DNA of 42,935 nt from a virus (taxonomy: Duplodnaviria; Heunggongvirae; Uroviricota; Caudoviricetes). Where the stretch lies: IMG/VR virus record IMGVR_UViG_2529292907_000021; one strand, 5' to 3'. Positions 16,320 through 42,511 of this stretch are shown in pieces. The notes under the pieces were generated by a model. It did not search any database. It was not told the origin of the DNA and saw only the letters and a program-made list of their open reading frames with translations. A program made the position numbers and the translations under genes. Numbering within the stretch: the first letter of the stretch is position 1; each line of letters opens with the position of its first letter.

Positions 16320-17035
16320 GCGCCTATAAGGCTCTCTTACCAGCCGCGCCCTAACAGGCGCACACGATCTGACATTTGCATCCAACTTCGTTACTTACGG
16401 CCCGTAAACGGGCTGCCCGGATAGGGAATCGATAACTGCTCTCCCATTTTATCCTCTTCAAGCTGGTGCTTTATGTAATCCTGTATCTTCGCCGTGTTCT
16501 TACCCACCGTATCGACGTAGTACCCTCTGCACCAGAACTCCCTGTTCCTGTATTTGAATTTCAAATCACCAAACTGCTCGTAAAGCATCAGACTGCTTTT
16601 CCCTTTCAGATATCCCATAAAGCCGGATACGCTCATTTTGGGCGGGATCTCCACAAGCATATGGATATGATCTGCACAGCATTCAGCTTCAAGAATCCGT
16701 ACGCTTTTCCACTCGCACAGCTTTCTCAAAATACTGCCTATTGCTCTACGTTTCTCTCTGTAGAACACTTGTCTTCGGTATTTTGGCGCAAAAACTATGT
16801 GATATTTACAGTTCCATCGGGTGTGCGCTAAGCTCTTTTCGTTCCCCATTGGGACCCCCTTTTGATTTCTTGTTTGACACTTGCAGTTGCCAGACCGCAA
16901 GGTGTTTTAACAAATCAAAAGGGGTTTTAATAACTGGCTCAAAGCTGAAAGCTTTCCGGAACCCCCAGCCTAGCTGGGGGTTTTCTGTGCACAATAAAAA
17001 GGCCTGCATAAGCAGGCCTCTTTCTCAGACTAGAA
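16320..17035 (-). mobile_element. IS200 insertion sequence (IS200/IS605 family), boundaries approximate
   Basis: Contains the tnpA gene plus the characteristic left-end terminator hairpin (AGGCCTGC-TTAT-GCAGGCCT followed by TTTTTATT on the element strand) and a second hairpin (ACCCCCAGC-TAG-GCTGGGGGTT) preceding the tnpA RBS; a further hairpin lies near the right end (~16285-16315). Confidence 0.7.
16391..16849 (-). CDS. tnpA: IS200 transposase TnpA (HUH/Y1 transposase)
   Basis: Translation MGNEKSLAHTRWNCKYHIVFAPKYRR...HIHMLVEIPPKMSVS...REFWCRGYYVDTVG is the hallmark IS200 TnpA sequence; start placed at the internal ATG with AAGGGGG RBS. Confidence 0.85.
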   Translation of the reverse strand: MGNEKSLAHTRWNCKYHIVFAPKYRRQVFYREKRRAIGSILRKLCEWKSVRILEAECCADHIHMLVEIPPKMSVSGFMGYLKGKSSLMLYEQFGDLKFKYRNREFWCRGYYVDTVGKNTAKIQDYIKHQLEEDKMGEQLSIPYPGSPFTGRK

Positions 17036-19402: not shown

Positions 19403-20583
19403 GATCCAAGTCCGTCAGCGCTTGTGATGTATCCATCAAGCGAATAGCGCACGGCGTCCCAAAGGTGGTTGTGCTTATCCACGACAACCGGTAGCACTTC
19501 GCCGGTCATGCGGTCTGTTTTATAGGAGTAGAGGCGCGCCTCATCGACCATGTGCTTGCAGCGCTCATGGATAATGATCTCTTCAAACCCTTTCAGGTAT
19601 GTGATTCCGTCCTCAACGCTGCCAGGCCACTTCGTAGCCCCGTCGATAACGAAGCCCTGACGTGACAAGTAGCTGATTGTTTCAGGTCGGCTGCAGTCAC
19701 CGTGGATGGGCCACTTTCTGGACTCCGGGATAGAGTCATAGAACGAAGCCATTTCATCTAGTTCGACGCCAACACCGTAGGCCTCGTACTCGATATAAAG
19801 CCTGGTGCCAATGATGAAGCAGCGAACCAGTGTTGACGGGTCATTAGCAAAACCGAAGTCAGCGCCATAGAACAAACGATCGGCACTTTGCCACAAGTCG
19901 TCAGCGAACGCTTCAACCCGGTACTTGCCGGAGAAAATGACAGCTTCACTGAGCGCTTTCGGCAGGCCAAGCCAGATATGTTCGTAGGCTTCGAAGTCGA
20001 TACGCTTGCAGTACTCCATCTCGTGCCGGAGCACGTCAGGAAAGAAGGCGTTATCAACGTAATTGACGCAGGTGATGATTGCGCCGCCATCAGGGGGATC
20101 AGCGCGGTGCCGTTCCATCATGGCGTAGGTCGGGTCGGTAGCCTCACGCGGGTTGAATGACACCCACACTTCCGATTTATTGGCGCGAACGGTCGGGCCA
20201 AGGATATCCCAACTATCCTGCGATACAGTCTGCGCCTCTTCCACCCAGCATATTTTGATGCCGTGCATCGACTTAATGCTCTGGATGTTGTTACGTAGGC
20301 CTTTGAAGGTAAAGCGCGTGCCGTTGCTGCCCTCTATCTCGTTATTCTTGACCTTGTAGAAGTGCGCTAGGCCAAGCGAGTGGATCTCCGCATCCAGTAG
20401 CGCAAGTACCGAATCGTTGATGGAGTTCTGGAACTCACGAGCGCAGAGGATGATCATCGGCTCGATAGCGCCCAACAATACCAGCGCGCGGGCAATCTCT
20501 ACCGACTTGCCACCACCGCGACCGCCATACGTCCAGCGCCAGCGAACAGAGCCTATCGGTGCGTCGTACAGCGTACACATCAC
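19375..20583 (-). CDS. Terminase large subunit
   Basis: N-terminal Walker A-like motif (YGGRGGGKS) followed by a nuclease-type C-terminal region; 402 aa; precedes the portal gene. Confidence 0.7.
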
Positions 20584-25882: not shown

Positions 25883-26082
25883 GCCCTGTTTTGCCAGACA
25901 CGGCTCGGGCGCGGCGCTTTCTCGCTTTCGGGCAGTTGCACGCTGACAGTCCAGGTGATGTTGTCGCGATTAAGGCTGCGCTCTACCGTGGCGCCACGGC
26001 GGCAGTAACTGGCCACCAGGTCGTCGGCCTGCTCGGTTGTGCATTCGTGATGGTGAAACCAGGAATATTTCATCGCCATCAC
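25873..26082 (-). CDS. Small hypothetical nin-region protein
   Basis: 69-aa ORF tightly packed between the NinB-like and NinG-like genes. Confidence 0.3.
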   Translation of the reverse strand: MMAMKYSWFHHHECTTEQADDLVASYCRRGATVERSLNRDNITWTVSVQLPESEKAPRPSRVWQNRAWG

Positions 26083-26678
26083 CCCGCGAAGCTCATGAGC
26101 TGCGATGCAGCGTTTTCCGCTTCACGCTGGTCCTTGAATGTCCGGGACAATACCCAGCGCCACAGAACATCGAGCGCGGCTTTGTACAGCTGCTGGAACT
26201 CGGTTTCGTCCATGTTGGAAAAGGCGATACTGCGAGGGTGTTTGCGAAGGGTGCCGTCAGGAAGCTGTATGGCGTCGTAGTGGCCAGACTCGATGATCAC
26301 CCATGCACGGTATGCGTCATAGGATTTGCAGATGCTGATACTACCAGCGCGCTTATCAGCGATACGCTCAAGGTATTGCTCAGCAGCATCCAGGAGTGCG
26401 GCTTCACTTCCCGCGAATGAGGCAAGGAACTTGGCATAGCCGGTTACCAGCTTGCGTTCGTTGGAGGAGATCGCCCCGCCGGTAGGTTCCCAGTATTCGA
26501 AACCGAGATTGAGTAATGCGAAGAATCGGCGATGGAACGCCGGGTTGCGTACCTGCCGGAACTCAGCCACCAGCACGGCGCCGAGTTTGAATTTTGATTG
26601 CAGTAAATCGCTGGTCTCCGGCGTAGCGGGGATCAGGATTCCTGAGGACTGCTTGATTAGTTGTAGTTCGTGCGCCAT
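26079..26678 (-). CDS. Phage nin-region protein (DUF1367/NinB-like, tentative)
   Basis: 199-aa ORF in nin-region order; segment RNPAFHRRFFALLN loosely resembles the NinB motif RNRSLDQNRKLWACL. Confidence 0.4.
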   Translation of the reverse strand: MAHELQLIKQSSGILIPATPETSDLLQSKFKLGAVLVAEFRQVRNPAFHRRFFALLNLGFEYWEPTGGAISSNERKLVTGYAKFLASFAGSEAALLDAAEQYLERIADKRAGSISICKSYDAYRAWVIIESGHYDAIQLPDGTLRKHPRSIAFSNMDETEFQQLYKAALDVLWRWVLSRTFKDQREAENAASQLMSFAG

Positions 26679-26713: not shown

Positions 26714-27013
26714 TCAATCCGTTGATATTATGATATCAGAGGGTTGGGTGATGCGGTAGCCAAGTCGGCGAAGAAAACGAGTCCCAGATGAAAGGTTGAA
26801 GACCCCTTCATCCTCCAGTAATGGACGGCATGATACCAGGCCATTTCTGCTATAGACGAGATACTGACGATCCAGTGGCATTGAGGCCATAAGCCTTCCA
26901 TCTGAACGCCTGATAATGTCGTACCAATCGCCTTGCTCCTGACTTTCCTTCACAAAACCCCCTTCTTTGCTATCAACAAATTTCACTCTTCCAGCCGGGA
27001 TAATCCCGTCCAC
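26714..27013 (-). CDS. Hypothetical phage protein (99 aa)
   Basis: ORF in the early-right operon orientation; no recognisable motif. Confidence 0.35.
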   Translation of the reverse strand: MDGIIPAGRVKFVDSKEGGFVKESQEQGDWYDIIRRSDGRLMASMPLDRQYLVYSRNGLVSCRPLLEDEGVFNLSSGTRFLRRLGYRITQPSDIIISTD

Positions 27014-27449
27014 AGAACCAACATACCAAATGGCGCAAATTTCCTAATAGGTTGGCTGGAAGAAAAAATAAAAATATTTACTGCAACATCTTAACTATAC
27101 CCCAAAACAACTGTACATATAAACAGTATTCGTCTGTTTTGCTTAAGTATGCACATGAAATCCCTGTTTGCGCAAGGTCATTTATCCGATTGATTTAGAT
27201 AAATTTTATTGCTACTTTCGCGCAAAAATTGATCGTTATTTTTAACAGTTGACTACGTCAAAACTGTCGACTGTAAATATCTGATTGGAATGCTCTCGTC
27301 AGGTAAATGACAAAGGTGTAGATGTCGTCAGGGGACATATTTCACTGACAGCGAGGAAAGTCAGGTTGGTAATTTGTTGCTGCGCTGTGCTTATTTGATA
27401 ATCGATTTCATAGATCAATTTTACCAAATCGATCGGTATTATCGATCGA

Positions 27450-27704
27450 CTAATATTTGTAGCGTTTTTCCGGGAGAAGAGCGTATTCGTAGGTGAAGTT
27501 GAATGCCTCGTTTTCAGTGTTAAATCGGCGTTCTGAGATATCTCTCCAGTGCCCTACCCTGAAATACTTCTGAGCAACCCACTTTCCCTCGAACGGGAAC
27601 ACAGCGTAAGCGCCCACGTACTGATGATCAGCGTGCGGGTCGGGATATGACTCCCCCTCTACCAGAGAGTAAAACTTGATGCCGCTTATAATTATGCAGC
27701 TCAA
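27450..27704 (-). CDS. Hypothetical phage protein (84 aa)
   Basis: ORF abutting the upstream gene stop; no recognisable motif. Confidence 0.35.
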   Translation of the reverse strand: MSCIIISGIKFYSLVEGESYPDPHADHQYVGAYAVFPFEGKWVAQKYFRVGHWRDISERRFNTENEAFNFTYEYALLPEKRYKY

Positions 27705-27947
27705 TTATTTTTTCTCGTTCTGCGCGGCCAGATCCAGATAGCGCGGATCGGACGCTCTTGGCAACGTCATGCTCTGCTCGCGGTAGTTGAAGTATTCACG
27801 AAGATGCTCTGGTTTCTCACGCGCTACCTGCTCATCGATAACAGGCATGTTCATGCGCTCTTTGTACGCTACGCCACTGGCAGCTAGGTCGACGTTAACC
27901 TTGTCCTGCTCTTCTTTCGATTTTGCTGCGATGTTATGACCAGACAT
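27705..27947 (-). CDS. Hypothetical phage protein (80 aa)
   Basis: ORF preceded by an inverted repeat and a TATAAT element; acidic/basic helical character. Confidence 0.35.
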
Positions 27948-28417: not shown

Positions 28418-29106
28418 GCTAACCTCAGTTCCAAGTCGTTTTTGACCTTCAATCGCTACCTAGTGGGTAACTCCCAATAACTAAGGAATAGATCAGTAGC
28501 TTTTGCCCTTAATCTCAAGAACTTTCCTTGCCTTAGATGAAGAAATCAGCACTCGATCAAAATTTCTATTTTTTTCTCAATTATTGACATCCCTGCCAGG
28601 CCTTATAAGACGCGCGCTTAGCGATCCTCACCCTTTTTCAAGCTCAATTTAACCTCAAAATCAACTATTGTGCTGAAAAGAATCCCTACTACAATGGGCA
28701 TCAGGAAGCAAGATATAGCAAATGGAAGTCTAAAAAACGCAATATGTTGCGTTTGGTTGGAAGGCTAAATGCGGATATGAAAAACCCGGCTGATTAGACC
28801 GGGTCTTCAATCGGTAACAGAGTTACAGCTCCGTTGCCGTGCCGTAAAACACTGGCGACTTGAAGTAGCTTAATCAAATGCAGCGCATTCTTCAAGTAAC
28901 CAGGAACGCCCTGAAGCACTCTGGTACACCCAGTAACAACTTAGGGACTGATATAGCTGTGAATTTTTAGTCCGGGTTTTTGGTGATTCTTAAACCCCAC
29001 CCCAACAATTAATCGTGCCGTAAAACACTGGCGACACAGTGAAAACTGCAAAGGCAAGCCCATGGGTGTTTGCAGCTAGGCGCGATAAAACTAAGAGAGT
29101 CCCATA

Positions 29107-29190
29107 ATGGCTGACTTACTTATCAAAATCGTACCTCCGATTATCGTGATTGTTACTGCGATCATTGAGTACGTAAACCAGCGCCCGTAA
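29107..29190 (+). CDS. Small hydrophobic peptide (27 aa, MADLLIKIVPPIIVIVTAIIEYVNQRP), candidate small membrane protein or toxin
   Basis: ATG preceded by a purine-rich AAGAGAG element; single hydrophobic helix with polar C-terminus; an intrinsic terminator follows within 20 nt. Below the length threshold of the ORF track. Confidence 0.3.
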   Translation: MADLLIKIVPPIIVIVTAIIEYVNQRP

Positions 29191-29205
29191 GCATGGTATA
29201 GCCCA

Positions 29206-29243
29206 AAGGCCCAGAAATGGGCCTTTCCTTTTACGCAGCAATT
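29206..29243 (+). terminator. Intrinsic terminator after the 27-aa peptide ORF
   Basis: Hairpin AAGGCCCA-GAAA-TGGGCCTT followed by TCCTTTTAC. Confidence 0.5.
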
Positions 29244-29548
29244 CCCCTCAGGTTACACAGCTCAGGAAAATTAGCTCGCACCAAAGCCTCAGCAAACGGC
29301 GGAGGAACAGCGTTACCGCAGCGGGCAACCTGCTTATCCTTCACGTACTTCTTATCGCTGTAGTCCTGAATAATGATATACAACTAAGGAACATACAGCC
29401 TCATACCAAGATGTTCGGTACCCAGTATCAATTGACCTCAACACATAGCAAGAAGTTATTGCACTCGTTCTCAAAGTAAAACCACCTTGAAAAAGAGATA
29501 TCATTTTGATATCATGTCTTGAGAAACCTCTAGAGGTAAGGATTCATT

Positions 29549-29914
29549 ATGCCCTTAAGCACAGATGTTGATCGTGTGTTAACGTTCACTGAAAGACTTG
29601 AACAAATTTTAATGGAAATGGTCGAAAAACATGACCATTTCTTTGACTTCCTTCGAGTACGGGGTGGACAAAATCTTCCCCAAACTGTTTCAGTAAAAAA
29701 TGAAAAATTCAAAATTAGCATCCCATTGATTATGCTAATTTTGTTAATCACACGCTTAATAGTCTTCAAACTTGCGATTATGTATAAGCTCATAAGATCC
29801 AAAATGCTTGAAGTGAAAGCACTGTCTAAAGTAGGCCAAAACACGCATATCTATCTTTTTGATTTAGATACAGTTCGGAAATTGAACATTAAGGAGACCT
29901 TATGTCACGCATGA
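29549..29914 (+). CDS. First gene of plus-strand cargo operon, unknown function (121 aa; C-terminal half hydrophobic)
   Basis: AGGTAAGGA RBS before the ATG; preceded by a perfect inverted repeat GATATCA-N4-TGATATC (operator-like) and a TTGACC -35-like element; AT-rich. Confidence 0.35.
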   Translation: MPLSTDVDRVLTFTERLEQILMEMVEKHDHFFDFLRVRGGQNLPQTVSVKNEKFKISIPLIMLILLITRLIVFKLAIMYKLIRSKMLEVKALSKVGQNTHIYLFDLDTVRKLNIKETLCHA

Positions 29915-30177
29915 AAAAGCCTGACAGCTTTCTCCTTAGATTCAAAGAAGAAGATGGTATCAACGGTATCAGTTCTGAATCCTTTGAAAAACTAATGAAA
30001 GCTACTGGCATGAGTAAAACAGACCTCATGCATTTTGCACTCGTAAACTTAGTGGAAAAATACATCCCGGCTTATGAGCAAGATGATGGGCCCTTGACCG
30101 AAGCTCAATTCCGGACACTACATGAAAGATCGAAAACTAACCAAACGCCGGATGAGAGTTTCGAAATGCTATTGTAG
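29902..30177 (+). CDS. Putative antitoxin-like small protein (ribbon-helix-helix-like), second gene of cargo operon
   Basis: AAGGAG RBS; 91 aa; a predicted beta-strand (FLLRF) followed by helices (ESFEKLMKATGMSKTDLMHFALVNLVEKY) is consistent with an RHH fold; sits immediately upstream of the MazF-like gene. Confidence 0.4.
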   Translation: MSRMKKPDSFLLRFKEEDGINGISSESFEKLMKATGMSKTDLMHFALVNLVEKYIPAYEQDDGPLTEAQFRTLHERSKTNQTPDESFEMLL

Positions 30178-30185
30178 GTATAAAA

Positions 30186-30587
30186 ATGCATTCGAAAATA
30201 GAACCATTGCCAAAGACCGGCGATATTGTTTGGCTACAACCATCTGAAGAATGGGGAGTTGATACTCCCAAAAGGAGACCAGGTGTGGTATTAGGTGTAT
30301 CGAAACTAAGGCATGAAATCATAGTTGCATTCGGTACGAGCCAAAAAACACACAAACTCTACCCATCAGAGTTTCTTATTCAAAAAGCTGATGGCGATGA
30401 TGTTTTTGGTCTATCTGGGTTAAGCTACGATACTAAATTTGACTTAGCCAGAACATCTATCCTGCCTTTTACTACAGAGTTTTTCTCTAAGGCACCAAGA
30501 AAAAATAATGTCCCTTATCCAAAGCTTGGTAGTGTTCATATAACGTACTACAAAGCGATGTGCAAGGCGAAAAACAATAGTAATTGA
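30186..30587 (+). CDS. MazF/PemK-family toxin-like protein (putative endoribonuclease)
   Basis: Motif GDIVWLQPSEEWGVDTPKRRPGVVLGV...IIVAFGTSQ aligns by eye with the MazF/PemK N-terminal signature (GDLIWVDFDPTKGSEQAGHRPAVVL...CVPCTTQ). Confidence 0.55.
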   Translation: MHSKIEPLPKTGDIVWLQPSEEWGVDTPKRRPGVVLGVSKLRHEIIVAFGTSQKTHKLYPSEFLIQKADGDDVFGLSGLSYDTKFDLARTSILPFTTEFFSKAPRKNNVPYPKLGSVHITYYKAMCKAKNNSN

Positions 30588-30729: not shown

Positions 30730-31215
30730 TCATACCGAACCGCTTTTAACAAAGATAATCCAGTGAGTTTTGTCGTTCTTTCCGGTACGCTGACCAATTG
30801 CAGGTTTCACATCTGTAAGTGCCAAAATCTGGCTAACAGGGATCTGCGTCTCGTTCCATTTGAATATGAGAACGCCGTGTGGCCACAGTACGCGAAAAGC
30901 CTCTTTGAATCCGCTTCGTAAATCAGAACGCCACGTTTTTTTGTTCAGTCGCCCGTATTTTTTACCCATCCAGGCAGACTGGCCAACGCGCTCGAGGTGC
31001 GGCGGGTCAAACACCACAACCGGAAAAGAAGAATCAGCGAACGGCAGTGAACGAAAATCGGCAATCAGGTCGGGACTGATAACCAGGCGGCGACCGTCGC
31101 ACAGTTCGTGCTCTTCGGCGCGGATATCAGTGAACACGGCGCGGGTGTCCTGCTTGTTGAACCAGAACATGCGGGAGCCGCAGCACATATCAAGAATCGT
31201 CGTGCTGTCGGTCAT
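30730..31215 (-). CDS. Small putative SAM-dependent DNA methyltransferase (start chosen at ATG overlapping upstream stop)
   Basis: Contains a motif I-like ILDMCCGSR and a motif IV-like VVVFDPPH (DPPH/DPPY class of amino-methyltransferases); ATGA overlap with the upstream gene. Confidence 0.4.
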   Translation of the reverse strand: MTDSTTILDMCCGSRMFWFNKQDTRAVFTDIRAEEHELCDGRRLVISPDLIADFRSLPFADSSFPVVVFDPPHLERVGQSAWMGKKYGRLNKKTWRSDLRSGFKEAFRVLWPHGVLIFKWNETQIPVSQILALTDVKPAIGQRTGKNDKTHWIIFVKSGSV

Positions 31216-31523
31216 ACTGATGTTCTCCCGTAAAACGCCAGAACCCGCTGCATCGCCGGACTTGTGCGGCATACTGATGCGACCACGTTTTTTCTCATGC
31301 TCGATTTGAGCTGCTTGATGTTCAGATCCCCGCCGGGCTGAAGCATGTAGACCGGGTGATGCGGATCGCCAGTGCGGATAACTACCGCTCTGCGTACCAG
31401 GTGAAGCAGCAGGTTGTGTGCCTTCTTGCAGTCGCATCCCAGAAGGTTCTGAACCTGACGCGGCGTTACGGTCTGGTTAGCCTGAAGAAAATCAACGATT
31501 GCCCACAGTGATTTGCTTGCCAT
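31212..31523 (-). CDS. Hypothetical phage protein (103 aa), downstream of the DnaC-like gene
   Basis: ORF in operon orientation, translationally coupled to the methyltransferase-like gene. Confidence 0.35.
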   Translation of the reverse strand: MASKSLWAIVDFLQANQTVTPRQVQNLLGCDCKKAHNLLLHLVRRAVVIRTGDPHHPVYMLQPGGDLNIKQLKSSMRKNVVASVCRTSPAMQRVLAFYGRTSV

Positions 31524-34050: not shown

Positions 34051-34147
34051 AGGACCTCCTTAAGTGAGCAAAGTAAAGCACCAATTTACTATTGAGTCAA
34101 TACACGCCTGCCTACCAACTGGTAAAGCTATTGTTTACAATCCCTAC

Positions 34148-34531
34148 ATGAACAAAAAAGATCCTAACCAGAGCCTTATTTCCAGGCTGACTGAATTGAA
34201 TGGCAAAGGCTTCTCAAAAACAGAGATGGCCAAGGTTGCTAATGTCAGTAAGCAGGCGGTAACCGGATGGTTTAGAACCGGTAAAATCAGCAAAGAATCT
34301 GCCCTCGCTGTTGCAGACGCTGCTGGCGTGTCTGTGCCATGGCTACTCGGCGAGGATGTTGGAGAGAAAGACGGCCTTAAGCCGGACGAACAGCGCCTGC
34401 TGGAGCTCTATCGCCAGTTGCCGGAAGAAGAGCAGCAGAACATGCTCCGCATCTTTGCCATTCGCCTGAAAGAGTTGGACGAGTTGTATGAGAAATACAT
34501 GAAGGGGCGTATTCGTTCTCAGGGAGAGTGA
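34148..34531 (+). CDS. DicA/RacR-like prophage repressor (HTH, no peptidase domain); start chosen at internal ATG
   Basis: HTH LISRLTELNGKGFSKTEMAKVANVSKQAVTGW and a C-terminal region (LKPDEQRLLELYRQLPEEEQQNMLRIFAIRLKEL) resembling DicA as recalled; the internal start leaves a ~97-bp divergent control region with the cro-like gene. Confidence 0.6.
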   Translation: MNKKDPNQSLISRLTELNGKGFSKTEMAKVANVSKQAVTGWFRTGKISKESALAVADAAGVSVPWLLGEDVGEKDGLKPDEQRLLELYRQLPEEEQQNMLRIFAIRLKELDELYEKYMKGRIRSQGE

Positions 34532-40917: not shown

Positions 40918-41190
40918 ATGGCCAAGCTTCTTAATCTGCAGGAATGGGCGAATTCGACTTATTCAACCCCGCCGTCTCTTTCAACACTTCGCCGCTGGGC
41001 GCGGGAGGGGCGCATTTACCCTGCTCCGGAACTTCACGGAAAAGAATATAAGGTTCAGCCTGACGCCATCTATGTGGATCCGAGCAAAAAGAACCTTCGT
41101 CCCAAATCAAAACGCTTAGCGCTGCCAACTGGCGGCACTCTACTGGAGAGACTGACTCATGGCGAAAAGGCCAGTACGTTACGACGCTAA
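40918..41190 (+). CDS. xis: Excisionase (lambda Xis-like)
   Basis: N-terminus MAKLLNLQEWANSTYSTPPSLSTLRRWAREGRIYPAPELHGKEYKV closely parallels lambda Xis (MYLTLQEWNARQRRPRSLETVRRWVRECRIFPPPVKDGREY); overlaps the int start. Confidence 0.65.
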   Translation: MAKLLNLQEWANSTYSTPPSLSTLRRWAREGRIYPAPELHGKEYKVQPDAIYVDPSKKNLRPKSKRLALPTGGTLLERLTHGEKASTLRR

Positions 41191-42244
41191 CCTGCCCCGT
41201 AACCTGACCTATCGTAAAAGAGACAGGCTTTATAGCTGGCGAAACCCGATTACCGGTCAAGAATTATCTCTTGGCCGGATCGACAGAAAGGACGCCATTT
41301 CTCAGGCCATCGAGGCCAACAACTACATCGACCAAAATTACCTTCCGTCAGCGCTGCTTGACCGCATAAAGGAAACACCAACATTTACGGTGAAAGCGTG
41401 GCTCGAGCGCTACGAAGTAATTCTTGAGCGAAGAGAATTGAAGCCCAACACGATGAAGGTCAGGCGCAATCAGATCGCCACTATCAGTGATGAATTCGGA
41501 CGTATGCCGCTATCGGCGGTCAGCACAAAGGACGTATCTACTTTCCTGGAGAGTTACATACTCTGCGATAAGAAGAGCATGGCCTCTGGCCTGCGATCGG
41601 TATTGTTGGATATTTTCAGGGAGGCGATCGTCGAGGGACATATTGAAAGGAACCCGGCAGAGCCGACAAGAACGCCGACACCAAAAGTGAAGCGTGAGCG
41701 TCTTTTGCTCGAGCAGTTTGAGATAATAAGGGATGCCGCAACTGCTCATTCTGGATGGGCTGCAAATGCATGTGACCTGGCGCTGGTCACCGGGCAGAGA
41801 AGAGAGGACGTATCGCTGTTCAGATTCAGCGATATCAGGGATGGAAGATTGTTTGTCACACAGGAAAAGACAGGTCACAAATTGGCGTTGCCACTTGATT
41901 TGCGACTGGACTCTGCTGATTTGGTATTGCAGGATGTTATCGACCGTTGTCGTAAAAACAACCCGTCAGACTTCATGCTTTATTCTGCGGTAAGGCGTGG
42001 TGGCCGGAAGCCAGGTCCGTTAACTCCGGACGGAATCACCCAAGCATTTTCTGATATCAGGGATTCTACAGAGTTAAAGTTTGGCCCCAACCCTCCCCCG
42101 TTCCATGAGATCAGGAGCTTGGCGAGCAGGCTCTATGAAAGGGAGCGCGGAGAGGATTTCGCACAGAGACTGCTGGGGCATAAAAATTTAACAATGACCA
42201 AAAAATACCTGGACGCACGCGGTGCAGAATATGTTATGGTTTAG
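41159..42244 (+). CDS. int: Tyrosine integrase (lambda Int-like)
   Basis: 361 aa; N-terminal arm-binding region and a C-terminal catalytic region with ...HEIRSLASRLYERERGEDFAQRLLGHKNLTMTKKYLDARG matching lambda Int (...HELRSLSARLYEKQ...AQHLLGHKSDTMASQYRDDRG). Confidence 0.85.
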   Translation: MAKRPVRYDANLPRNLTYRKRDRLYSWRNPITGQELSLGRIDRKDAISQAIEANNYIDQNYLPSALLDRIKETPTFTVKAWLERYEVILERRELKPNTMKVRRNQIATISDEFGRMPLSAVSTKDVSTFLESYILCDKKSMASGLRSVLLDIFREAIVEGHIERNPAEPTRTPTPKVKRERLLLEQFEIIRDAATAHSGWAANACDLALVTGQRREDVSLFRFSDIRDGRLFVTQEKTGHKLALPLDLRLDSADLVLQDVIDRCRKNNPSDFMLYSAVRRGGRKPGPLTPDGITQAFSDIRDSTELKFGPNPPPFHEIRSLASRLYERERGEDFAQRLLGHKNLTMTKKYLDARGAEYVMV

Positions 42245-42320
42245 ACAGGATATGGAAATTTCGAGTAATTTTCGTGGGATTTCGTGAAAGCACCGAAAAA
42301 ACCCAATGAAAACAGATAGA

Positions 42321-42424
42321 TAAAAAGAGACCGAATACGATTCCTGTATTCGGTCCAGGGAAATGGCTCTTGGGAGAGAGCCGTGCGCTAAAAGTTGGCA
42401 TTAATGCAGGCTTAGTTGCCTTGC
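42321..42424 (-). ncRNA. sdsR: SdsR (RyeB)-like Hfq-dependent small RNA, ~104 nt
   Basis: Minus-strand sequence begins GCAAGGCAACTAAGCCTGCATTAATGCC... and ends in hairpin GACCGAATACAGGAATCGTATTCGGTC plus TCTTTTT; a sigma-S-like -10 (CTATTCT) lies ~7 nt upstream of the inferred 5' end; sequence matches my recollection of SdsR but was not database-verified. Confidence 0.5.
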
Positions 42425-42511
42425 CCTTTAAGAATAGATGACGACGCCAGGTTTTCCAGTTTGCGTGCAAAATGGTCAATAAAAAGCGCGGTAGTCATCA
42501 GCTTAAATGTT

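Follow-up and report, generated by a model that had tools for sequence, protein, structure and literature searches.

The stretch of DNA analysed here (the window) is the 42,935-nucleotide (nt) virus record IMGVR_UViG_2529292907_000021, a lambdoid prophage whose early-right operon lies on the minus strand, and within this operon an earlier note had singled out a gap at 27014-27449. Our analysis leads us to propose, with good confidence, that this gap is the cis-regulatory region of a minus-strand, SOS-controlled antirepressor gene of the Gifsy type, and its right-hand third would most likely contain a LexA-repressed promoter and the leader of the antirepressor messenger RNA (mRNA). Judged by its conservation, the gap is a discrete non-coding control module and not spacer. 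The evidence consists of sequence conservation, homology, gene order and covariation, from which the binding of LexA and OxyR, the start sites, the antirepressor activity and any role of Dam are predicted. The core belongs to a kind of system already familiar from Gifsy, phage 186 and N15, in which LexA controls an antirepressor; what is new is the lack of dinI, a covarying leader and a conserved upstream region with a site of the agn43/gtr type. The most informative element of the gap, a near-consensus LexA box at 27111-27126, had been overlooked in the earlier note.

The module, its LexA box and the putative antirepressor gene

The left edge of the gap at 27014 is an artefact of an over-extended open reading frame (ORF) beginning at GTG 27013; with the gene start judged from homologues, which places it at GTG 26953, the non-coding stretch is 26954-27449 (496 bp). 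As had been claimed, the gap is AT-rich and free of ORFs of 60 amino acids (aa) or more: GC content is 0.31-0.44 over 27000-27450 versus about 0.48-0.59 in the flanking genes, and the ORFs that do occur within 27014-27449 have 37-48 aa. The palindromes that the earlier note had named are also all present, with TCGATCG-GTATTAT-CGATCGA at 27429-27449, the GTTGAC-TAC-GTCAA dyad at 27248-27261, GTCGAC at 27268-27273, and ATCGAT-N7-ATCGAT-like units at 27428-27446 and 27401-27419. Units of this last kind occur six times in the window versus 1.64 expected, and none of 100 shuffles reached six. Two further motifs do not go beyond chance when taken singly, GATCG-N7-CGATC being expected 1.46 times in the window at one mismatch or fewer and CTGT-N8-ACAG being found twice versus 0.62 expected. 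The significance of the palindrome and LexA-type motifs comes instead from their conservation over 55-70 homologous loci, and not from counts in a single window.

The module is about 483 bp long and sharply bounded. At least 70 prophage contigs carry it, with 70-100% identity, and in every case a small gene comes next on its 3' side, followed by DUF1367, NinG and Q. All of its features lie on the minus strand, which is the early-right direction. Exact-pattern scans of IMG/VR returned 37 loci with a pattern in the GATC palindrome and 71 with an independent pattern beside the LexA box, and BLAST of the window region against the IMG/VR loci gave 70-79% identity over the whole module with an alignment start always at exactly 27447. 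The same boundaries recur in 70 loci or more, including those whose neighbouring genes differ, and the distance from palindrome to LexA box is 318-324 nt in 55 distinct sequences. These 55 distinct homologues, on which the GATC counts below are based, were chosen by the LexA-side pattern, without reference to the GATC end. Among species-representative genomes the LexA-side pattern was found only in Leclercia adecarboxylata, a Leclercia metagenome-assembled genome and Pseudescherichia vulneris. Of 5426 E. coli genomes, a single one has a copy of 26965-27447, which megablast aligned at 95% identity; the copy sits at the same place in a different prophage, unannotated and flanked on both sides by unrelated sequence. 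A comparison with known phages, in a collection that includes Gifsy-2, gave no nucleotide similarity in either near or distant mode.

The LexA box lies about 4.4 kb downstream of the DnaC-like gene, outside the immunity region (coordinates of this and the other features are in Table 1). Its CTGT-N8-ACAG core reads CTGTACATATAAACAG, and the full box was scored against the LexA consensus TACTGTATATATATACAGTA. In all aligned homologues ACTGTTTATnnnTACAG is invariant, with changes confined to the three central bases of the spacer. The search pattern that returned the 71 loci included only ACTGTTTAT of the box, and the other half, which the pattern did not require, is conserved in these loci too. 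In most relatives the promoter that overlaps the box reads TTTATn, a 17-nt spacer and TATGGT, and the -10 block GTATGGTT/GTATAGTT is invariant or nearly so; transcription from it would start near 27087. An invariant LexA box over a conserved promoter-like pair, directly 5' of a GftA-family antirepressor gene, supports the suggestion that the gap is a regulatory hub with an internal promoter. The related suggestion of repressor or antirepressor operators stands in one part only: the gap appears to be an antirepressor control region, but the operator that can be recognised in it is that of host LexA, and no operator for the phage repressor or Cro was found there. Operators of the phage repressor were considered and rejected: the ATCGAT-type motifs are missing from the immunity region, and the gap has no operators similar to any there.

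Downstream of the predicted start site, the leader contains a long-range stem that is a perfect 10-nt inverted repeat in the window (27063-27054 with 26996-26987). In an alignment of 47 sequences the stem has 11 pairs and shows changes on both sides, from GC to AU in four sequences, and from GC to CG in four and to AU in two; its G-U pairs work only as minus-strand RNA. The loop of the stem holds the start of an upstream ORF (uORF), which in most relatives is 19-21 codons long with a stop codon that overlaps or abuts the antirepressor start (ATGTGA or TGATGTG), suggesting translational coupling. In the window a 1-nt difference fuses the uORF in frame to the antirepressor gene, resulting in an apparent ORF of 99 aa, and in about 9-13 relatives the uORF is missing or interrupted. 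We consider it likely, but unproven, that the uORF is real. The majority type carries in addition a terminator-like local hairpin, TTCTCCC-CGCC-GGGAGAG followed by GGTATTTGGT (L009:637-654, with an equivalent in most relatives). This hairpin, with GGUAUUUGGU behind it, overlaps the uORF and competes with the long-range stem for its 3' arm, and it is possible that it forms a translation-sensitive attenuator.

The small genes linked to the module fall into several allele classes, and the homology of the window's 79-aa protein to GftA, the antirepressor of Gifsy-2, runs through one of them. The class-A allele (MAEVCSDGG...) matches GftA with a BLASTP E-value of 5e-12 and the window protein with 3e-8, and it matches both phrog_4847, which is GftA's family, and phrog_340. 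A comparison of the profiles of the two groups with hhalign gave 96.4% probability and an E-value of 1e-9. These matches argue that the 79-aa protein is a homologue of GftA, and it would accordingly be expected to act as an antirepressor. Its gene occupies the position of gftA (STM1020.1n) in Gifsy-2, between the LexA-controlled start and DUF1367, and the DUF1367 gene on its 3' side (26079-26678, E 6e-91) has the same position as STM1020. The closest phage relatives of the protein are in mEp237, SEN34, SW-37, PHB10, two Klebsiella phages and Citrobacter phage Chris1; in mEp237, SEN34 and a Klebsiella phage the homologue lies between DUF1367 and a dinI gene that is itself preceded by a terminator and a LexA box.

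The presumed target of the antirepressor is encoded in the immunity region, which contains a small helix-turn-helix repressor and a Cro/YdaS-like gene. In Pfam the repressor matches only HTH_3 and Phage_CI_repr, without an S24 self-cleavage domain, and its PHROG matches are to repressors and regulators. Among 50,697 phage records its closest relatives come from seven phages (nine of the top records, two phages having been deposited twice), and these are also the seven in which homologues of the 79-aa protein occur. Such co-occurrence is what a cognate pair of repressor and antirepressor should show. From the immunity region the operon continues with YdaT-like, O-like and DnaC-like replication genes, a DNA methyltransferase and a theta-subunit homologue, and then with an 84-aa ORF (ending at 27450), the gap, the small antirepressor ORF, DUF1367, a 69-aa ORF, NinG and Q.

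This arrangement can be compared with that of the Gifsy prophages. Lemire, Figueroa-Bossi and Bossi (2011) documented the LexA dependence of a dinI-gftA/gfoA/gfhA-irsA operon in Gifsy-1, -2 and -3, in which the antirepressor is a small GUG-initiated ORF between dinI and the irsA homologue, and GftA is the experimentally proven antirepressor of Gifsy-2 (PMC3121763). The order in Gifsy-2 is O, DnaC, two terminators, LexA box, dinI, STM1020.1n (GftA, 73 aa, GTG), STM1020, NinG and Q. Like Gifsy, the window has a small repressor that lacks a cleavage domain, and its LexA box and promoter come after the replication genes, not within the immunity region; its small antirepressor gene is homologous, has a GTG start and is followed by DUF1367 in the STM1020/irsA position, NinG and Q. 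The two also differ. The Gifsy operon opens with dinI, whereas here its place is taken by some 134 nt of structured leader, in many cases including a coupled uORF; the LexA box covers the -35 hexamer and the spacer here, and the -10 hexamer and start site in Gifsy-2; and the conserved region of about 320 nt with GATC/OxyR-type half-sites contrasts with some 80 nt after tandem terminators in Gifsy. Tum (p95) of coliphage 186 and AntC of N15 are also LexA-controlled antirepressors. Both are cited in the Gifsy study (PMC3121763). As in the proposed system, LexA represses an antirepressor encoded outside the immunity region, and the repressor, which cannot be cleaved, loses its activity when the antirepressor binds it. 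Unlike in the proposed system, Tum carries a DinI-like half as a fusion, and in N15 a small processed RNA provides further control.

The GATC palindrome and the upstream region

The 5' boundary of the module is the GATC palindrome, which directly adjoins the stop codon of the 84-aa ORF upstream (27452-27450). On the minus strand its core reads GATCG-ATAATAC-CGATC and carries GATC-I (27447-27444) and GATC-II (27434-27431). The OxyR half-site is ATAG-N7-CTAT, and by its sequence the palindrome is an OxyR-type half-site with both arms made into Dam sites. A second conserved unit contains GATC-III and half-site 2, ATCT-ATGAAAT-CGAT, whose centre is 31 bp from that of half-site 1; against the 10-nt OxyR consensus the two half-sites match at 8/10 and 7/10 positions. 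In most relatives a fourth GATC (CGATC versus CGATT in the window) creates a second GATC-N9-GATC pair. All 55 homologues keep GATC-II, 51 keep GATC-I and 42 keep GATC-III, and the exact GATCG-N7-CGATC is found in 48. The spacer between the half-sites (27420-27428) is fixed in length and variable in sequence, and two conserved blocks 31 bp apart with such a spacer between them fit a protein that contacts two half-sites; the element of an alternative 22-bp register is not conserved. In our view it is very probable that a protein binds at the 5' end of the module, to a site of the OxyR/Dam kind. Of the dyads that the earlier note had proposed as elements, the GATC palindrome and the ATCGAT repeats are conserved in the family, while the GTTGAC...GTCAA/GTCGAC dyad, which lies in the hypervariable core, is not conserved in sequence.

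Inside this site the consensus scan found a promoter-like match, P1, written TCGATA-16-TGgTAAAAT, which points to the antirepressor gene; in the majority type it is weaker and there is no match of at least 9/12. The analogy with a GATC triad upstream of cor (see below) and the GenBank promoter annotation in the P22 gtr region suggest that P1 would be oriented toward the antirepressor. Rfam contains no family that reaches its gathering threshold in the gap. The best match there is to IS102/IsrC, the agn43 leader, at 29 bits and an E-value of 0.003 against a gathering score of 46, and it is confined to the GATC hairpin.

The loci agn43 and P22 gtr are established cases of Dam/OxyR phase variation (PMC4856963; PMC8022706). 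E. coli agn43 (flu) carries GATCG-TTTATAT-CGATC, which is the design of half-site 1 in the window, and both gtr pairs of P22 gtrABC have the GATCG-N7-CGATC design as well. Further likenesses are the clustering of several GATC at helical-turn spacings and the location of the site on a prophage, upstream of a gene in the same orientation. The spacing differs from gtr, where the pairs are about 63 bp apart, whereas the half-sites of the window are adjacent at 31 bp, and in agn43 three GATC lie downstream of the start site. In the window, unlike in either locus, the nearest downstream gene is about 480 bp away with the LexA promoter in between, and action of OxyR and Dam is putative. Salmonella opvAB is also counted among the Dam/OxyR phase-variation sites.

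A 48-nt homologue of the site lies in unannotated sequence upstream of the superinfection-exclusion gene cor in HK97-like coliphages, at 19704-19751 in mEp237 (L083:2501-2548) and also in HK140, HK225, mEp213 and mEp043. At 77% identity it has the same GATC-N9-GATC-N14-GATC spacing, half-site 2 (GATCTATnnAATCnAT) and orientation, and it closely resembles the P22 gtr half-site plus TAACAT. The element stands about 60 nt before the cor start codon, presumably in the cor promoter region, whereas that of the window stands 320 nt before the LexA promoter. By analogy, cor may be under Dam/OxyR phase variation; our literature search found no paper that links cor or antirepressor control to Dam/OxyR. 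The early operon of the window also encodes, upstream of the GATC-rich site, a phage DNA methyltransferase (30730-31437, minus strand; phrog_954, E 1e-85) with a DPPH motif. If this enzyme methylates GATC, the state of the OxyR-type site would change after induction.

Between the palindrome and the LexA box lies the upstream region, some 320 nt of fixed length in which conserved blocks surround a hypervariable core. The core includes the GTTGAC-TAC-GTCAA dyad, GTCGAC and a conserved island that matches the consensus WATCARNNNNTTR of IHF; such a match is present in 42 of the 55 homologues. On the 3' side of the core, GTGCATACTTAA is invariant within the AT-rich block. The local hairpins of each core type are real, but their positions are not conserved. 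Whether all types were aligned or only the largest one, RNAalifold found neither convincing conserved helices nor covariation on both sides of a helix in the 320 nt, on either strand. Variation over the upstream region shows no three-base pattern in any phase. A sigma-54 promoter or CRP site, looked for by eye in the conserved blocks, gave only partial matches. Two short ORFs were considered and rejected. A 37-aa ORF (plus strand, 27285-27398) and a 42-aa ORF (minus strand, 27427-27299) looked constrained in a comparison of the window with one E. coli copy, several of the changes being synonymous. In the other sequence types, however, the plus frame is closed, and the homologue L003 has a stop in the 42-aa frame. 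Neither has a Shine-Dalgarno sequence or a family match.

Two of the roles proposed earlier for the gap did not hold up. A tR2-like terminator is not borne out for the GATC palindrome, as the tail on the transcribed strand is UUUGG (the minus strand after the palindrome reads UUUGGUAAAA), the terminator scan flags the palindrome on the plus strand only, and the tail in relatives, AUAUCACG or ACAAGAAU, is not U-rich. A second replication origin finds no support, as the gap lacks DnaA boxes (TTWTNCACA) and direct repeats or iterons, and a replication module of the O/DnaC type is found elsewhere in the prophage.

Proposed mechanism and rival explanations

We propose that in the lysogen host LexA, bound to the box, would occlude the overlapping promoter (TTTATA/TATAGT). 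When LexA is cleaved after DNA damage the promoter would fire. Its transcript would begin with the structured leader of about 134 nt, which often includes a uORF coupled to the start codon, and would be translated into the 79-aa GftA-family antirepressor. Binding of the antirepressor to the small non-cleavable repressor would then derepress the prophage. The upstream 320 nt may insulate the antirepressor from read-through of the early operon, and may add a second input that is sensitive to methylation or OxyR through a weak P1 inside the site, as at agn43, gtr and the cor moron; the 5' site could act as a second input, as an epigenetic gate or as an insulator, or in several of these ways at once. 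A prophage whose repressor cannot be cleaved depends on an antirepressor for sensing DNA damage, and the antirepressor's control region would be the real switch of induction. Leclercia, Pseudescherichia and one E. coli prophage would then have a Gifsy circuit without dinI, with a structured leader and uORF and a long, strongly conserved upstream region. What had been an unannotated gap next to a hypothetical protein would become a recognisable SOS switch, and phrog_340 a family of antirepressors.

Several observations weigh against this interpretation. The 79-aa protein of the window and GftA have no direct BLASTP similarity, their homology being traced through the intermediate allele and the profile comparison, and dinI is absent between the LexA box and the antirepressor gene, an interval taken up by the leader only. 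The promoter hexamers are weak, the majority type matching at 8/12 positions, which is below the scan threshold. A region of about 320 nt with neither a conserved RNA fold nor a coding signal is left functionally unexplained. At the 5' site, conservation does not extend to the third OxyR contact element, and 13 of the 55 homologues lack GATC-III; the site is about 330 bp from the LexA promoter, and OxyR normally acts near a promoter. Read-through from P1 would give induction independent of SOS unless it is stopped within the 320 nt, where no conserved terminator was found.

Two explanations of the upstream 320 nt would add to, or stand beside, LexA control. One is a Dam/OxyR switch of the agn43/gtr type, which would create ON and OFF lineages for P1, with only a subpopulation primed for induction or inducing spontaneously, a logic that is described for the known loci (PMC4856963; PMC8022706). 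This we regard as a tentative possibility: half-site 1 has the agn43/gtr design, a second half-site lies 31 bp off with three to four GATC within 50 bp, a homologous triad precedes cor, which is expressed from the prophage, and a promoter-like match and the weak similarity to the agn43 leader coincide with the site. The half-sites nevertheless match the OxyR consensus at only 8/10 and 7/10 positions, GATC-IV is missing in the window as GATC-III is in some relatives, P1 is weak, and no terminator or other device that would keep P1 transcripts off the antirepressor is evident. That the site is a working Dam/OxyR switch which affects induction of this prophage appears doubtful, and the more specific proposal of an epigenetic gate in series with the LexA switch, formed by the GATC/OxyR-type site and the fixed-length 320 nt, in which heritable methylation states or OxyR occupancy decide which lysogens can induce or do so spontaneously, appears unlikely. 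Should the site be functional, prophage induction would be tied to OxyR or to the methylation state of the DNA, and bistable or spontaneous induction, a long-standing observation, could be tested at a defined element of 50 bp; if the epigenetic gate exists, superinfection exclusion would also become phase-variable, through the corresponding cassette in front of cor. The other explanation, which is conceivable to a similarly limited degree, is an insulator or attenuator, an untranslated stretch rich in C over G that stops early-right read-through in a Rho- or hairpin-dependent manner and leaves the antirepressor to LexA control alone, with the GATC palindrome as a weak terminator or boundary. 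It would be in keeping with the one or two intrinsic terminators that precede the LexA box in Gifsy-2 and relatives, with the many module copies that lie directly behind a canonical rho-independent terminator, with the lack of translation, with the C-rich minus strand at 27250-27450 (plus-strand GC skew +0.14 to +0.36), and with the hairpin followed by UUUUCU in several sequence types. It does not explain the invariant blocks, the fixed length and the conserved GATC half-sites, the window type and the L018 type lack the hairpin with its following U-run, and the tail of the palindrome on the minus strand is not U-rich.

The remaining alternatives would replace a control region with a gene. A small regulatory RNA (sRNA) on either strand, for instance one that controls translation of the antirepressor, had been suggested earlier and would have precedents in the RNA control of antirepressors by P22 sar, P1 c4 and N15 CA RNA; every sequence type has local hairpins, and the IS102 match could be counted in its favour. 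We consider it quite unlikely, given that no Rfam family reaches its threshold, the 320 nt have no conserved structure or covariation on either strand, and no conserved terminator was found; the core type also does not track the antirepressor allele, as L001 combines a core of the window type with a different allele. Very unlikely is a decayed protein-coding gene, such as a remnant that replaced dinI, with conservation reflecting recent descent and not function. In 17 of the 55 homologues a minus-strand frame is open for 66-105 codons, over most of the region, and ends just before the LexA box, which is unexpected in AT-rich DNA. Against this, no phase shows three-base periodicity, most copies, the window among them, have breaks in the frame, there are length differences of 1-2 nt, the open frames match neither Pfam nor PHROG and have no start codon with a Shine-Dalgarno sequence, and the stop codon in L003 interrupts the 42-aa ORF. 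Control of an antirepressor by LexA remains our preferred reading of the gap.

Other features of the prophage

Table 1. Features of the control module, the putative antirepressor gene and the repressor gene in the window
Feature	Position	Strand	Description and basis
GATC palindrome, OxyR-type half-site 1	27429-27449	-	minus strand TCGATCGATAATACCGATCGA; core GATCG-N7-CGATC at 27447-27431
Candidate promoter P1	27418-27445	-	TCGATA, 16-nt spacer, TAAAAT preceded by TG; 9/12 (consensus scan); inside the GATC/OxyR-type site
Second conserved unit ATTGATCTATGAAATCGAT	27401-27419	-	GATC-III (27416-27413) and half-site 2, ATCT-N7-CGAT (27415-27401)
Hypervariable core	27246-27366	-	discrete sequence types of equal length, each with its own local hairpins (alignment)
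IHF-consensus block AATCAGATATTTA	27274-27286	-	matches WATCARNNNNTTR; binding putative
Conserved AT-rich block 5' of the LexA box	27128-27245	-	low entropy; family consensus GTGTTAAAAAT...TTCATGTGCATACTTAAGC
LexA (SOS) box	27109-27128	-	minus strand TACTGTTTATATGTACAGTT, 17/20 match to TACTGTATATATATACAGTA; binding predicted
Candidate LexA-repressed promoter	27094-27123	-	TTTATA (-35, inside the LexA box), 18-nt spacer, TATAGT (-10); 9/12 (consensus scan)
Antirepressor mRNA leader, about 134 nt (predicted)	26954-27087	-	long-range stem; Shine-Dalgarno GAAGGGGG at 26965-26958
uORF (likely)	26954-27013	-	start at GTG 27013, inside the stem loop; ATG in some relatives
79-aa gene, GTG start, putative GftA/GfoA-family antirepressor (phrog_340)	26714-26953	-	PHROG match E 2e-7 and homology chain
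Prophage repressor	34064-34531	+	probably 127 aa from ATG 34148 (127-155 aa); presumed antirepressor target

Several further observations concern the surroundings of the module. At one end of the window an SraC/RyeA and SdsR/RyeB sRNA pair (42318-42462) lies directly beside the integrase gene (41159-42244), with what we take, from its translation, to be a yebY-like gene beyond the pair, and this area is likely to be the neighbourhood of the attachment site. Inside the prophage, about 7.5 kb beyond Q in the early-right direction, STnc490, an Hfq-binding sRNA family, has a full-length match of 146 bits at 16859-16982 on the minus strand. Two plus-strand genes at 29902-30587 interrupt the minus-strand early operon, an ORF of 91 aa and then one of 133 aa; the latter has a borderline match to PemK/MazF-like toxins (E 1.4e-4, just under the Pfam cut-off), and the two could be a toxin-antitoxin moron. 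Another part of the early-right region, about 1.1 kb from 28420 to 29530, has no ORFs on either strand apart from very short ones. Two genes upstream of the gap, at 27705-27947 on the minus strand, is a homologue of the theta subunit of DNA polymerase III (HolE/Hot-like, Pfam E 3e-29), and SEN34 and a Klebsiella phage have a theta homologue at the same relative position.

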